Positions 32,810 through 55,160 of a stretch of 64,000 bases of DNA are shown here, in pieces. Numbering within the stretch: the first letter of the stretch is position 1; each line of letters starts with the position of its first letter. A program made the translations under genes and the position numbers. The notes beneath the pieces were generated by a model. That model searched no databases and was not told the DNA's origin. It saw only the letters and a list, made by a program, of their open reading frames with translations. The stretch comes from a virus (Duplodnaviria; Caudoviricetes): positions 5,772 to 69,771 of the IMG/VR virus record IMGVR_UViG_3300012942_000002, one strand, 5' to 3'.

Positions 32810-33325
32810 TCACTGCTCTCGGTTCACGACCTCGCCCTGTATGACGTGGCCCTCACCGGCAGGGGCAACGCCGAAGAACTGGTCCAGCAGTCGCTGCGCC
32901 TCGTTGGCATCTCCCTCACGACTGTTCACGTTCATGTCGACCTTGATCGGCTTCTCGACACCAGTGAGCCGCATCTCGCGGTCCAGCAATCGCGTCCAGG
33001 CTGCCACTGCCTTCTCGTCACCCATCATCACTCGCTTGGACAGCGCTCGTTTTGCGATGGCGATCTGGTCAAGCAAATGCTGACGATACTCGTCGGCCTT
33101 CTCCTCCAGCTCCGGCTTGATGCGGTCCTGTATCCACCGCCTCACCGTCTCGAACGCCAGAGAGTCCCCGAACTCCTCGTTGACGATCTCCACCGTCTCA
33201 CGCAATGTGTAGGACTCACGCCTGAGCTCAATGGCACGTGTGGTGACGAGATCCCTGAACTCATTGGTGATATCCGTGGGCCTCCCTCCTCGCCGCCGCC
33301 CCGTCCTCTTCTGAAGCCTGCCCAT
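32810..33325 (-). CDS. terS: probable terminase small subunit
   Basis: N-terminal GRP plus HTH (AIELRRESYTLRET...ETVRRWI), helical core, first gene of the packaging operon. Confidence 0.65.
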   Translation of the reverse strand: MGRLQKRTGRRRGGRPTDITNEFRDLVTTRAIELRRESYTLRETVEIVNEEFGDSLAFETVRRWIQDRIKPELEEKADEYRQHLLDQIAIAKRALSKRVMMGDEKAVAAWTRLLDREMRLTGVEKPIKVDMNVNSREGDANEAQRLLDQFFGVAPAGEGHVIQGEVVNREQ

Positions 33326-33344
33326 GCACATCCACCCCATATCG

Positions 33345-33880
33345 ACTCGTTACTTCCGCCTCTCCAAGCCTACCCCCAGCGACTCGTTTCCCGCTCTCCA
33401 CACACTCTCCACCTCATCCGGAGGGCAAATCCCTCCGACCCCTCCGCACTTCCCTCCCTGAATCCCTCCCTCTCAAACACATCCCTACCTGCTCATACTC
33501 TTCCTAAGGAGGGAAAGAGGGATTTGAAAGCGCAAAAGTTCGCGTAAAGGGTAGGTAGGACTAAACCCATTTTATCAACATATTTCACCTCTCGGCCTTA
33601 GCCCCGAGACCCAGACCTAACGGGATAGTTTTTCAGTTAAGAGGGTCCCTCTTCCCTCCTCGGACGATCCCCTCCGACATTCCCGCAGGTCACACACACT
33701 TTCAACACGGAGGGCTCTGAGGGGGGATCTGAATCCCTCCGCCCCCTCCTAACCCCTCCCGGTCTCCACATCACGCATAATTCACACATTTCATCCACAC
33801 CCAGAGCGCCGAAACGCGCGGTAGAGTATACTGAACCTCGGCCCTATAGCCGAACCCGAGACCAGCAGACAAGGACAACC
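33345..33880. other. C-rich noncoding region between divergent units; candidate replication origin or packaging region
   Basis: AATCCCTCC at 33428, 33461 and 33732, many CCCTCC, AT-rich core ~33520-33640; next to TerS and the primase operon. Confidence 0.5.
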
Positions 33881-33882
33881 AG

Positions 33883-34371
33883 ATGGCCAAGAAGGTCGCC
33901 TCTCCCGAGCTCCAGGCTCGAATGAGGAGCGCAATCGCCATGATCGGGCGTGGCGTCAACCAGAACAAGCCCGAAATGGAGCTGGAGGGGCGTCGTCTCC
34001 TGGCAGCCGCTCGCATCGAGAACGAGATCCTGATACACGCGGAGTTCCTGCGTAAGGAGGACCTGCGCCCTCTGGCGTCCATCCTCTTCGGAACCCCGGT
34101 TGACGACCTCGATGACGAGGACTACACCGCAGACGCGGTCGAGACCAACTCCGAGGCCCTCGCTCGCAGCAAGGCTCTGGATGAGCGGGCCAAGGAGCTG
34201 GAGGACTACCCGCTCACGGCTCTCGACGTCCCCGACGACGCCCGCGCGCTCGCTCCTCCGCTCCGCCCCACCAAGGAAGAGCGGATCGCAGCCATGCGCA
34301 GTGGATACGAGCGCGAGCGGGCCCAGTACCCCCAGCCCGAGCTGCTGGACGACCCCGATGACATCGAGTAG
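33883..34371 (+). CDS. hypothetical protein
   Basis: AAGGA RBS, coding-like GC3; TATACT -10 near 33827. Confidence 0.75.
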   Translation: MAKKVASPELQARMRSAIAMIGRGVNQNKPEMELEGRRLLAAARIENEILIHAEFLRKEDLRPLASILFGTPVDDLDDEDYTADAVETNSEALARSKALDERAKELEDYPLTALDVPDDARALAPPLRPTKEERIAAMRSGYERERAQYPQPELLDDPDDIE

Positions 34372-34407
34372 CCCCGCCTCTGAGCAGTACCCTTACCAGC
34401 ACCAAGC

Positions 34408-42185: not shown

Positions 42186-42595
42186 CAGCCCGGCCAACCG
42201 GCCCGAGCCCCGTTCCCCAAGTGGGAGCGGGGCTCTCTCGCGTTCCGGGGTCGCCGTGGCCCGTAGCGGCCCCGTAGGCGAGCGAACGCCCCGTGCGAGC
42301 CCCGTTGCCCCGCCAAGCCCGCGCGGAGCCGCCTACGAGCCTCCTACGGCTTCCGGCCGGACGTAACGGCGAGCCCGCGACCCGGCCACGCTGCGCCCCG
42401 GAGGGGCGAGTCCATGCCGGCTGCAAGCCGGCAGATGGCCCGATTCGACCCGATTTACCCTGAGGCGCGGTGAATCGCCGTAGACGCCCGGCACTCACTC
42501 CTACCTGGTCAAACAGAAGTTCTGGAAAAATCTTGAAGAAAGTTCGCGAGCCTCCTACCAGGGCATTCATCATGAATGACCAGGTAGACGCCGTG

Positions 42596-42624
42596 TTGCC
42601 TTCTGCGTGGATATGGAGCATGAT
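42596..42624 (+). promoter_or_regulatory. promoter for structured RNA A
   Basis: TTGCCT-17-CATGAT, preceded by palindrome 42554-42587. Confidence 0.6.
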
Positions 42625-42630
42625 AGTTCC

Positions 42631-42997
42631 TGTAAGCGAGAGGGCGGCGAGCGAAGCTCCCGGGACGGCGACTCCAGCCGACGGTCGAGGCTCCACCCGA
42701 AGAACGCGAACACCGAGCAAGGCGGCCAGGCGACAGGTCGGTAGCAGGAAATGCAGCGTCGGAGACTGGGCACCATCCCACCACAAGAAAACTGGTAGCG
42801 AGGGTAGTAGCGCGCAACGCTCCGGGGACGGACTTGCGGCTGGTCAGGGAGACACGGAACCGGCCACCGCAAGAGAGAACATCCGGAGAGTTGGCAAGGC
42901 GCAAGGGCCGAGCGAGCGGGCGGAGCGGCTGGTAGGTCCCACCGACGCCCGTGCAACACACAAGACGAAACAGCCCCGTCGGGAGACGCTGGCTGTA
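42631..42997 (+). ncRNA. putative structured ncRNA A ending at a hammerhead cleavage site
   Basis: No credible ORF; 5' domain covaries with 47249-47328; long-range stems 42756-62/42942-48 and 42833-39/42867-73. Confidence 0.55.
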
Positions 42998-43026
42998 GGC
43001 CGCTGAACGGCGGTCCTGAGGAGTCT
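42963..43026 (+). ncRNA. type II hammerhead ribozyme 1 (GUA site, cut after 42997)
   Basis: AGAC-GAAA-CAGCC..GGCTG-TA-GGCCGCT gaac GGCGGTC-CTGAGGA-GTCT. Confidence 0.88.
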
Positions 43027-43040
43027 CAAGGAGGAACACG

Positions 43041-43241
43041 ATGGGCATCCTGCCGAAGCGCGTCCCGCAGGCGAGCAACCCGCCGAACGGAACGCAGCAC
43101 GAGGGCCAGGGCGGTCAGTCCAACACGACGGGCTCCGGCCCGATCACGGACCGGCCGCTGCCCACCGAGGCCGACGGGCGCGACCTGATCCAGGTCGAGA
43201 ACCCGCTCGGCACGCCCGGCCCGGACGAGATCCAGCGCTGA
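43041..43241 (+). CDS. small Pro/Gly-rich protein
   Basis: AAGGAGG RBS joined to the ribozyme; followed by hairpin 43251-43279. Confidence 0.75.
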   Translation: MGILPKRVPQASNPPNGTQHEGQGGQSNTTGSGPITDRPLPTEADGRDLIQVENPLGTPGPDEIQR

Positions 43242-43315
43242 GCGGACGGCCAGCCGGGGAGCCCCCAGCTCCCCGGCTGTGCCGGCAACACCCGAAAGAA
43301 AGTTGCACTCCAGAG

Positions 43316-43344
43316 TAGCCATGCCGGCTGCAATGGAGTATAGT
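43316..43344 (+). promoter_or_regulatory. early promoter
   Basis: TAGCCA-17-TATAGT. Confidence 0.75.
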
Positions 43345-43388: not shown

Positions 43389-43991
43389 ATGGCCCGCAAC
43401 GAGAACAAGACCCAGAAGAACTTCGAAGCCCTCGCCGCCAAGGCTCCGACCCAGCTGCACGAGGACTTCGCCGAGTGGCTGTACATCCAGACCGGCATCA
43501 AGGTGGACGTCAAGACCGTCCAGCTGGCCGTCTCCTTCCGGATGGACTTCCAGGCCTCCCCCGAGAACCAGGCCAAGCTGGCCGAGCGCAAGGCAGCGGC
43601 TGCGGCCCGCAAGAAGGCGTCGGCCGAGCGCAAGAAGGCCAAGCTGGAGGCCGAGCTGGCGAAGCTCAAGGGAGATGCCGGCAAGGCCGAGGAGCCCAAG
43701 CAGGAGGCCGCCCCGGTCGTCGAGGAGACCAAGACCGAGGAGCCGGGGCCGGTCCAGAAGCTGACGGTGGTCTACGGCAACGGCGAGCCCGAGGTGCACA
43801 AGTTCGGCTGCGCCGACCTCAAGAAGATGACCAAGGCCAAGGGCTTCTCCAAGGAGACCGCGAACGTCCGGAGCCACACCGAGCTGACCCACCTGATCTA
43901 CTCGGACATGATCGACTCCGGCGAGTCCAGCCTGCAGGACAACTACATGGCCTACAACGCCAAGCCCTGCTGCCCCGCGCTGGACAGCTGA
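43389..43991 (+). CDS. Lys/Ala-rich paralog family protein 1
   Basis: PTQLHEDFAEWL...KTVQLAVSFRMDFQASPENQ, shared with 47743 and 54597. Confidence 0.85.
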   Translation: MARNENKTQKNFEALAAKAPTQLHEDFAEWLYIQTGIKVDVKTVQLAVSFRMDFQASPENQAKLAERKAAAAARKKASAERKKAKLEAELAKLKGDAGKAEEPKQEAAPVVEETKTEEPGPVQKLTVVYGNGEPEVHKFGCADLKKMTKAKGFSKETANVRSHTELTHLIYSDMIDSGESSLQDNYMAYNAKPCCPALDS

Positions 43992-44447: not shown

Positions 44448-44765
44448 ATGGGTCTGGTTCCGCTGCCGAGCGACGACGAGGTCGTCAAGGCGTGGCGTGA
44501 GCACGGCAAGAACAACTCGGCGACGGCCCGAGCGTTGGGCGTCAACGAGAGCACGATCCGCAAGGTGATCGTGCGAGCAACCGGCCGGACGCCTCGCCCC
44601 TACAAGAGGCTCCCGCTGGCCGGTGCACAGCTCTACGGAGCGTACCTGAAGGAAGGCGGCGACTGCCACTCCGTAGGCCGCCTAGCACGCCGCTACGGCG
44701 TCAAGCCCCAGTCGGTGCGCGCTGCGCTCCGTCGCTATCTGGACCGGGTCGACCCGGTCAACTGA
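44448..44765 (+). CDS. double HTH DNA-binding protein
   Basis: NNSATARALGVNESTIRK and SVGRLARRYGVKPQSVR. Confidence 0.8.
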   Translation: MGLVPLPSDDEVVKAWREHGKNNSATARALGVNESTIRKVIVRATGRTPRPYKRLPLAGAQLYGAYLKEGGDCHSVGRLARRYGVKPQSVRAALRRYLDRVDPVN

Positions 44766-46217: not shown

Positions 46218-46312
46218 CGGCCCTACGTGGCCACGTAACGAACGAACGCGCCCCGGTCGGGCCGAGTGCCTGACCGGGGCGTGCGAGGCCCGTAGAGGGC
46301 GGAAGGAGCACC

Positions 46313-47034: not shown

Positions 47035-47202
47035 GCCGGAGGCCGGGTGAATCGCCGTTGACGATAGGGTTCGCCCGATTCGCCCCATGACGCGTCGCAC
47101 TCATGCCGGCCTGCGGATATAGAAAAAGTCGAAAAAAGTTCCACGAAAGTTGCACATGCCCCTACCTGCGCATTCATCGCGAATGACCAGGTAGGGGCTG
47201 AG

Positions 47203-47237: not shown

Positions 47238-47697
47238 CAGGAAGCGACGAGGGCAAGGAACGAACTCCCCGGATGGCCGGTCTGGCCGAGGGTCGAGGTT
47301 CCGCCTGAAGACCGCGAACCCGAGCAGGACAGCCAAGAGAGACGGCTGCGATCGCGCACAGGACTTCGGTCCTGGCCGCTGACTCTAGACAGGAGCCGGA
47401 CTCCCCAAAACCGGTATGTTGCGAGCGACGCGACTGGACTTCCCGAGGACGGGCAGCCAACCTCCACTGCGGACGTTGGAAGCGCACACAGTCGGGCGGT
47501 ACTGAAAGCTGCTAGCGAGCAACGGACTCCACCTCTTCAAGCCTGGGTCAAGTGAGACACCCCGCTCGGGGCACCTCTGGCTAGGAAGTCGAAAGGTGGA
47601 CGGTCTGCCGGCAACCGCAACCCTCAACAAGCTGAGGAGATGCCGGCACTCATCAACAACAAGGACGAAACGAGCCCGCTGGGAAGCGCTGCTCGTC
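47238..47697 (+). ncRNA. putative structured ncRNA B ending at a hammerhead cleavage site
   Basis: Homolog of the ncRNA A 5' domain; CAGGAC-UUCG-GUCCUG 47359-74; stems 47418-23/47616-21 and 47528-34/47594-600. Confidence 0.55.
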
Positions 47698-47726
47698 CGC
47701 CGGTGGATGCCGGTGCCGATGAGTCC
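47663..47726 (+). ncRNA. type II hammerhead ribozyme 5 (U4C core variant, cut after 47697)
   Basis: GGAC-GAAA-CGAGC..GCTCG-TC-CGCCGGT ggat GCCGGTG-CCGATGA-GTCC. Confidence 0.82.
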
Positions 47727-47742
47727 CCAAGGAGGAAACACC

Positions 47743-48207
47743 ATGGCCGAGAACACCACCCCCAGCAAGAAGACCTTCGCTGAGCGTGCGGCCGCTGAGC
47801 CCACCGAGCTCCACAAGGCGTTCGCCAAGTGGATCGAGGAGAAGACGGGCGTCACCCCGGACCTGAAGACGGTCCAGCTCGCCGTCACCATGCGGATGGA
47901 CTTCCAGTCCAGCGAGGAGAACCAGAAGGCTCTCGCCGAGCGCAAGGCTGAGGCCGCCAAGAAGGCGGAGGAGGCCAAGGCCCGGAAGCTGGCCAAGCTG
48001 GAGGCGGAGCTCGCCAAGCTCAAGGGCGGCGAGCAGAAGGACGAGGCGAAGCCCGAGGAGCCCGCTGAGGCCCCGAAGGACGACGCTGAGCCCGCCGCTG
48101 AGGGCGACGGCGAGAACGGCGCGGAGGCGGCCACGGAGGCCGCTCCCGAGCCCAAGAAGGCGACCACCGCCCGGCGCACCCGGCGGACGGCGGCCACCAA
48201 GAAGTAA
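47743..48207 (+). CDS. Lys/Ala-rich paralog family protein 2
   Basis: PTELHKAFAKWI...KTVQLAVTMRMDFQSSEENQ; basic C-terminal tail. Confidence 0.85.
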   Translation: MAENTTPSKKTFAERAAAEPTELHKAFAKWIEEKTGVTPDLKTVQLAVTMRMDFQSSEENQKALAERKAEAAKKAEEAKARKLAKLEAELAKLKGGEQKDEAKPEEPAEAPKDDAEPAAEGDGENGAEAATEAAPEPKKATTARRTRRTAATKK

Positions 48208-54596: not shown

Positions 54597-55160
54597 ATGA
54601 GTGAAGACAACGCGCGCTTCGAGAAGCTGGTCGACAAGGACCCGTCCGAGCTGCACGAGCGGTTCGCCGAGTGGATCGCCGACAAGACCGGCTACGAGGA
54701 CGTGGACGTCAAGTCCGTCCAGATGGCCTGCGCCCTCCGCATCGAGTTCCAGAAGTCGCCGGAGAACCAGGCCGTGCTCGCCGAGAAGCGCGCGGCGGCC
54801 GAGAAGGCGGAGGCGGAGCGCGAGGAGAAGCGCGAGGCCCGCGAGCAGCGCAAGCGCGAGGAGGCCGAGGCCAAGGCCAAGAAGGCGGCCACCAAGTCCA
54901 AGGCGAAGGCCGAGGAGGCCGACGAGGACGAGGACGCCGAGGAGCCGAAGGCCAAGCCCGCGATCCGCCGTCGCCGGGGTGGTGCCGCCGCGACCACCGC
55001 CGCCGCGAAGAAGGCCGCCGCCAAGGCGGAGCCGGAGGACGAGGACGAGGCCGAGGAGCCCGCCGCCAAGCCGGTCTCGCGTCGCCGTCGCCGTCCCGCC
55101 GCCGCCAAGGCCAAGCCCGCGCCGGTCGAGGACGACTTCGACGAGGACGACCTCGGCTGA
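54597..55160 (+). CDS. Lys/Ala-rich paralog family protein 3
   Basis: PSELHERFAEWI...KSVQMACALRIEFQKSPENQ; TATAGT -10 at 54553. Confidence 0.85.
   Translation: MSEDNARFEKLVDKDPSELHERFAEWIADKTGYEDVDVKSVQMACALRIEFQKSPENQAVLAEKRAAAEKAEAEREEKREAREQRKREEAEAKAKKAATKSKAKAEEADEDEDAEEPKAKPAIRRRRGGAAATTAAAKKAAAKAEPEDEDEAEEPAAKPVSRRRRRPAAAKAKPAPVEDDFDEDDLG

Follow-up and report, generated by a model that had tools for sequence, protein, structure and literature searches.

The window, a 64,000-nucleotide stretch of a viral genome that forms a single contig of 69,771 bases, is, judged by its relatives, from a soil-derived Streptomyces phage of cluster BN. Over 42480-43060 its sequence matches Streptomyces phage ShakeNBake at 100% identity and eight further phages at 81-99.8%, and these nine phages belong to the lytic BN cluster (PMC8852317). 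Within it lies a 366-base region, 42632-42997, that runs from a predicted transcription start to a predicted self-cleavage site and is unannotated in the phage and viral database records examined. We refer to its product as RNA A. The features at the locus, together with a second copy of the RNA further along the window, are as follows.

42555-42587, no strand: 33-bp palindromic DNA site about 61 bases before the predicted start, a candidate site for a dimeric regulator (half-site counts, homolog variation).
42596-42624, plus strand: predicted promoter TTGCCT-17-CATGAT, one of nine related phage promoters, its spacing kept in homologs.
42632-42711, plus strand: 5' arm, a long hairpin of irregular pairing that closes at the first base and contains a kink-turn consensus, 42640-42641 with 42699-42703 (pair counts, 26 sequences).
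42724-42761, plus strand: pseudoknot 1, in which the loop CGAC (42731-34) of hairpin 42724-27/42736-39 pairs with GUCG (42758-61) across a small hairpin (covariation).
42764-42796, plus strand: invariant GAC linker and H-type pseudoknot 2, UGGG 42767-70 with CCCA 42777-80 and ACCA 42772-75 with UGGU 42793-96 (covariation).
42810-42902, plus strand: 3' rod, containing a second kink-turn consensus (42830-32 with 42874-79) and, at 42849-59, a conserved apical loop of 11 bases (covariation).
42913-42962, plus strand: exchangeable 3' hairpin and A/C-rich linker ahead of the ribozyme (predicted fold; several unrelated versions in homologs).
42963-43026, plus strand: type II hammerhead ribozyme, core and three stems in sequence, predicted to cut after GUA at 42997.
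43041-43241, plus strand: first gene of the unit headed by RNA A (unit A), 66 amino acids, GC3 0.96, no Pfam or PHROG match and so no family.
47240-47697, plus strand: paralog RNA B, 458 bases to its predicted cut (covariance model), with its own palindrome (47162-47194), promoter and hammerhead (47664-47725).

RNA A does not read as a gene. The frame that is open across it (42470-43006) has a GC3 of 0.61 against 0.94-0.97 in five neighbouring genes, it does not stay open in homologs, and neither start codons nor open frames are kept across 28 copies of the RNA. The original prediction that the region holds no credible ORF is thus borne out, and we ruled out RNA A as coding sequence. Neither did it match a catalogued RNA. 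A covariance-model scan of 42632-42962 found no Rfam 15 family at E values up to 10, and homologs at six plus four further loci were likewise without an Rfam match. Short likenesses to T-box, cobalamin and c-di-AMP riboswitches, SRP RNA, RNase P and rRNA loops were dropped, as the scan matched none of them. ARAGORN called no tRNA or tmRNA over RNA A; its tRNA-Pro call at 43212-43298 on the minus strand sits on a gene end and a hairpin and is probably spurious. The folding energy of the single sequence was no better than that of shuffled sequences (z -0.61), so that the support for structure comes from covariation. Contigs of four RNA-labelled runs (24 listed) cross the RNA A promoter and are many kilobases long in two of the runs; they may therefore be DNA, and they carry no information on transcription.

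The promoter elements that had been pointed out upstream of RNA A, TTGCCT (42596-42601) and CATGAT (42619-42624) separated by 17 nucleotides, are present in the sequence. Together they make up one of nine promoter-like sites, all similar, that fall between 38640 and 47226. A generic sigma-70 scan did not list the RNA A promoter. From its position we infer that transcription starts at G42632. Two of the promoters stand apart: full palindromes occur in the window only ahead of RNA A and RNA B and at no other promoter. Half-sites of the palindrome matched six times against 0.25 expected, and the two halves vary among homologs without pairing in RNA being maintained. An extra half-site lies at 42501-42514. 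The palindrome centres fall near -61 of both RNA promoters (42555-42587 and 47162-47194), a typical activator position, and helix-turn-helix genes at 44448 and 45861 are candidates for palindrome-binding proteins. Elsewhere in the window, a pyrimidine-rich non-coding stretch before the primase gene (33300-34400) contains a half-site at 33485 and is a possible replication origin.

At its other end, RNA A is predicted to be cut at 42997. The hammerhead has the full conserved core, three stems (6, 4 and at least 5 bp), an open stem II and GUA as its NUH site. It scores 17.6 bits against the Rfam model RF02276, below the gathering cut-off of 37, and the equivalent hammerhead of a distant phage genome (L066, below) scores 42.2 bits, above that cut-off. 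Among 117 distinct phage hammerheads that we parsed, the cleavage site is GUC in 109 and GUA in 8. The window holds seven type II hammerheads (at 42964, 44002, 44379, 45360, 47664, 48268 and 49791), and a ribosome-binding site follows immediately after every one of them. At 47664 the usual CUGANGA is replaced by CCGAUGA, as it is in 8 of the 117. This layout is familiar: clustered type II hammerheads (RF02276) that flank single genes or small gene blocks in phage operons are already known, and the accessible text of that report describes no conserved structured leader before the first hammerhead, such as is present here (PMC3088659).

The original prediction had also aligned 42640-42722, in the 5' part of RNA A, with 47249-47328 and asked for a covariance model. 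The similarity, to sequence from 47240 onward, is real (blastn E 0.02 within the own genome), and the model, once built, found exactly two copies in the complete own genome, RNAs A and B. Pattern, protein and profile searches recovered further copies in viral and metagenome contigs, giving 28 BN-type copies with distinct sequences. Every one of them begins at a promoter +1 and reaches a hammerhead site after 253-471 bases. Two copies each are carried by Yara and by the contigs L001-L005, L007, L028, L032, L034, L035, L036, L037, L040 and L043, and domains are shuffled between copies of the RNA. In two C-type copies (L006 8063-8470 and L024 1780-2194), the 5' arm is swapped for a longer, different domain, and both pseudoknots and the apical loop are kept.

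Comparison of these copies, and of four from distant phages introduced below (32 sequences together), indicates that RNA A is an uncatalogued structured non-coding RNA with a conserved double-pseudoknot core at 42724-42796. The first reading of the sequence had missed this tandem-pseudoknot core, which is flanked by the 5' arm and the 3' rod, each with a kink-turn consensus and so a putative kink-turn fold. RNAalifold also missed the pseudoknots. Pseudoknot 1 is 100% paired in 14 distinct rows of an unfitted MAFFT alignment, with two-sided changes at three of its four pairs. A permissive script found all four base pairs in 30 of the 32 sequences and three of four in both C-type copies, and nine different 4-bp pairings occur among the 32; in one copy (L043b) the script picked the wrong hairpin for pseudoknot 1, and the alignment displays the right one. 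Pseudoknot 2, whose third loop is A/C-rich, is 98.1% paired in 18 diverse rows. Its two-sided cells number 5 against 0.6 in shuffles, with changes at two pairs only (A-U 15, U-A 2, G-C 1 at one; C-G 15, G-C 2 at the other), a level reached by 42 of 500 shuffles. Its fold may resemble the luteoviral frameshift and preQ1-I pseudoknots. With the structure placed by eye on a MAFFT alignment, A-like cores (17, of which 14 distinct) are 97.2% paired, slid controls are at most 46% paired, and two-sided changed cells number 16 against 4.3 in shuffles, although such shuffles ignore relatedness and none of these counts is a P-value. In a joint alignment of A and B types pairing falls to 82.9%, because the register slips between classes.

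Outside the core, the kink-turn pattern of the 5' arm occurs in 23 of the 32 sequences tested, all of them within the 26 A/B-type sequences; C-type copies and the distant phages have other folds in place of the arm. The 3' rod is 98.7% paired, with two-sided changes at 7 of 25 pairs (15 rows). Its kink-turn pattern is present in 16 and its apical loop in 17 of the 32 sequences, and the shortest copies lack the rod.

Covariation in homologs is present, including in both pseudoknots, and most of the compensatory changes first read from RNAs A and B held up. GAGC/GCTC versus GAAC/GTTC is two-sided over 26 rows (G-C 17, A-U 6), as is CCG/CGG versus CCC/GGG (G-C 16, C-G 8), and the proposed stem CTTGCGG/CCGCAAG is supported. 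Two proposals were not supported: the change from CGGC to TGGC is one-sided (C-G 15, U-G 8 of 26 rows), and the stem GCGTCGG/CCGACGC lacks its 3' half in several homologs, its 5' half pairing instead in pseudoknot 1. The wider claim, a new structured non-coding RNA motif that lies between a predicted promoter and a predicted hammerhead, draws good support from these comparisons; the part that made release of the RNA the ribozyme's purpose fared less well. That purpose is weakened because the seven hammerheads of the window precede ribosome-binding sites and three of four distant leaders have no hammerhead.

Those distant leaders came from a search of IMG/VR with the pseudoknot 2 pattern, which returned 11 stretches. 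Seven are of BN type, and the other four come from viruses with genomes of 47-85 kb (L066, L070, L071 and L073). Outside the core, the four have almost no DNA likeness to the own genome over the 9-20 kb compared, yet L066 shares all 38 of 38 core bases with phages Rooney and Wentworth, and three of the four contribute new pseudoknot 1 pairings. Each carries one exact core copy, within a non-coding leader that follows either a hairpin or a promoter-like site, and in all four the core precedes a same-strand gene run several kilobases long. The L066 leader ends in the hammerhead that exceeds the Rfam cut-off; none was found in the leaders of L070, L071 and L073. Because three of the four carry the core without a hammerhead, it is the pseudoknot core, not the ribozyme, that defines the element.

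The exact core pattern was found in none of 401 Actinomycetota genomes. Weak host matches of two core models (R1 in 1 of 151 genomes, R2 in 4 of 150) were dismissed as chance, as all five lacked the core on inspection. Plasmids gave no real match, 113 loci from a hammerhead scan held no new core, and a last pattern scan added no new contig. Some neighbouring elements were also seen. L066 (about 1780-1805, inside hammerhead stem III) and L070 (about 1745-1770, inside a leader hairpin) share a second motif of about 23 bases. L070 repeats a three-stem intergenic element (about 1780-1830 and 2225-2280) at the positions of other phages' hammerheads; it has no Rfam match and could be another processing RNA. 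In Arthrobacter phage Wollypog (L189, 1328-2620) a run of genes is preceded by 1.3 kb of non-coding sequence, a long portion of it rich in T, and the core was unmatched there.

The position of RNA A coincides with a change in how genes are arranged. Upstream, genes mostly stand singly between a promoter and a 9-15-bp hairpin and are without the RNA; between 38600 and 42300 they form an array of single-gene units with near-identical promoter endings, most closed by a 9-12-bp hairpin that lacks a U-tract. From the first RNA onward, genes lie in long operons divided by hammerheads. The 66-amino-acid gene is followed by a hairpin of 10 bp (43251-43279) and then by another promoter-like site, its -10 at 43339. 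Further downstream in the window, hairpins at 46247 and 48222 have no detected promoter behind them, and strong promoter-less hairpins lie downstream in five of six homolog regions scanned and in all four distant phages, by promoter scans that are crude and may miss internal promoters. Most of the downstream hairpins lack a U-tract.

Many copies of the RNA adjoin a gene for a small, basic, helical protein (phrog_20596), which has three paralogs in the window (43389-43991, 47743-48207 and a third match near 54600). Its structural model has a mean pLDDT of 71.5 and gave no fold match at E 0.001, no PDB sequence match and no Atlas match. Members of the family are present, too, in three Streptomyces genomes and in phages of Arthrobacter and Microbacterium, none of which yielded the core. 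Given that distribution and the lack of a fold or sequence match, we did not accept the protein as an obligate partner of the RNA. In one Streptomyces genome (L062), a relative lies directly before an integrase-like gene in an element that resembles a phage satellite.

Taken together, the fixed place at the head of long operons favours a role in cis. We lean, tentatively, towards RNA A being a cis-acting RNA antiterminator in the manner of put, EAR and conAn2. In this scheme the palindrome at about -61 would activate transcription from +1 at 42632, and the leader RNA, folding as it emerges from RNA polymerase, would remain attached and allow the polymerase to pass termination signals within the long operon that follows. 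The main task of the hammerhead would be to provide the following gene with a message end of its own, as is the case for the other six hammerheads, and cleavage at 42997 would leave the leader as a discrete RNA. An antiterminator fits the position at operon heads, the single copy per head and the occurrence in both cut and uncut contexts. It is favoured further because the RNA opens a multi-gene region, upstream single-gene units being without it, and because strong promoter-less hairpins lie downstream of the copies.

Known systems lend this reading some precedent. Phage HK022 likewise has two related, non-coding, structured RNAs, the put elements, behind two early promoters, and their activity persists over 10 kb without a tether (accessible text of PMC9378689). 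Since put needs no tether, a polymerase-binding RNA fits cut and uncut contexts alike, and a cut just behind it would be tolerated; antitermination is also favoured because every operon head retains a copy of the RNA, much as putL and putR are both retained in HK022. The put RNAs as presented there differ in having about 70 bases and two stems and in acting with E. coli polymerase, where the RNAs described here have 253-471 bases to the cut and two pseudoknots and come from actinobacterial phages. The conAn2 RNA and its partner ConAn1 in Gram-positive conjugative elements, and EAR in Bacillales, also offer a structured RNA, a few hundred bases long, close to where a long operon of a mobile element begins (accessible text of PMC8191782 and PMC8632103). 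The size of RNA A fits that of conAn2 RNAs, which have about 260-600 bases and act in cis; conAn2, however, is located after the gene for its protein and depends on ConAn1 to act over long distances, and we found no such partner here.

Several observations stand against antitermination. Unit A seems to end after its one 66-amino-acid gene, the plain promoter at 43339 driving the next operon without a leader RNA, and L040 has no strong internal hairpin behind either of its copies. The conserved 3' rod and apical loop exceed what put or EAR needs. RNA A resembles none of put, EAR and conAn2 in sequence or by Rfam, put and conAn2 having been compared through Rfam only and EAR giving no Rfam match. 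Moreover, the stops to be bypassed are only putative because most of the hairpins are U-poor, and sites without a U-tract did not halt purified mycobacterial polymerase in vitro (accessible text of PMC3993855).

The main rival, somewhat less probable, is a trans-acting role: two strong promoters would yield the RNA in bulk, the hammerhead or nucleases of the host would release it, and it would target a host protein as a decoy, inhibitor or scaffold. The defined ends of all 28 BN-type copies would suit such an RNA, as would the A/C-rich linker that sets it apart from the ribozyme and the conserved loops that lie outside the core, and RNA A heads a very short unit in its own genome. Cluster A mycobacteriophages provide a precedent in their Pleft RNAs, which are abundant and toxic: in L5, D29 and StarStuff, an ORF-free leader of several hundred bases lies behind an early actinophage promoter (accessible text of PMC5712189). 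Their expression and toxicity have been demonstrated and that text reports no hammerhead for them, whereas RNA A is predicted from sequence; and core model R2 found no match in the L5 Pleft region or in the right ends of L5 or Kugel. No stand-alone unit of promoter, RNA and terminator occurs among the 32 sequences, three of the four distant leaders have no ribozyme, and an antisense target in the own genome was not above chance. The original prediction had suggested a discrete RNA released as a decoy or sponge. The predicted ends are shared by the BN-type copies compared, and a decoy or sponge role might apply; the two sponge targets tested failed. CsrA (PF02599), the target of a Csr/Rsm sponge, was found in 0 of 101 host-genus genomes with 3 of 14 controls positive, and L7Ae (PF01248), the target of a kink-turn decoy, in 0 of 101 with 7 of 14 controls positive.

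We consider it improbable that the core binds a small molecule, either as a riboswitch-like sensor or as an RNA sponge for a nucleotide signal. Pseudoknots, kink-turns and near-invariant loops are typical aptamer traits, and the core and its flanks have pseudoknots, a kink-turn consensus and near-invariant loop bases across distant phages. Against this, no terminator or ribosome-site switch was seen behind the core in BN-type copies, cleavage would separate the core from its genes, the downstream genes have no common theme, and no riboswitch family matched. The sponge version, an aptamer made in bulk and freed by the ribozyme to soak up a host nucleotide signal, we regard as still more doubtful; if true, it would be an RNA-only counterpart of the protein sponges with which phages counter immune signalling, common to distant actinophages. 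There is similarly little to recommend the idea that the pseudoknots protect the 5' end of the transcript from exonuclease or boost translation of the first gene: the core of L071 does lie shortly before the first reading frame with no ribozyme between, but in the BN-type copies, all 28 of them, cleavage by the hammerhead would detach this shield from the genes it is meant to protect. That the core is a new self-cleaving or ligating RNA is very unlikely, since, for all the heavy ribozyme use in these phages and the invariant unpaired bases that connect the two pseudoknots, it occurs once per operon head, is never repeated between genes as hammerheads are, and matches no ribozyme family.

Whichever role applies, the double-pseudoknot leader core is a new motif, uncatalogued in Rfam 15, and the hammerhead layout around it was already known. 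The open-access literature holds no description of RNA A, most subscription papers and supplements lying outside that scope; large tables of candidate motifs could, we presume, list the RNA unnamed. It joins GOLLD, ROOL and OLE, as described in the accessible text of PMC12286853, among structured RNAs of bacteria and phages to which no function is assigned, and differs from those large RNAs in being smaller, fixed at operon heads and without an Rfam match to them.

A 2021 paper counts three RNA-based processive antiterminators, put, EAR and conAn2, none of them, in its accessible text, actinobacterial (PMC8191782). If RNA A is an antiterminator, it would add a fourth, unrelated fold to that set and could help to express long biosynthetic operons in Streptomyces. 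Whatever its function, an RNA motif with two covarying pseudoknots is carried by nine cultured phages with laboratory hosts, and the role of long leader RNAs in actinophages is therefore directly testable.
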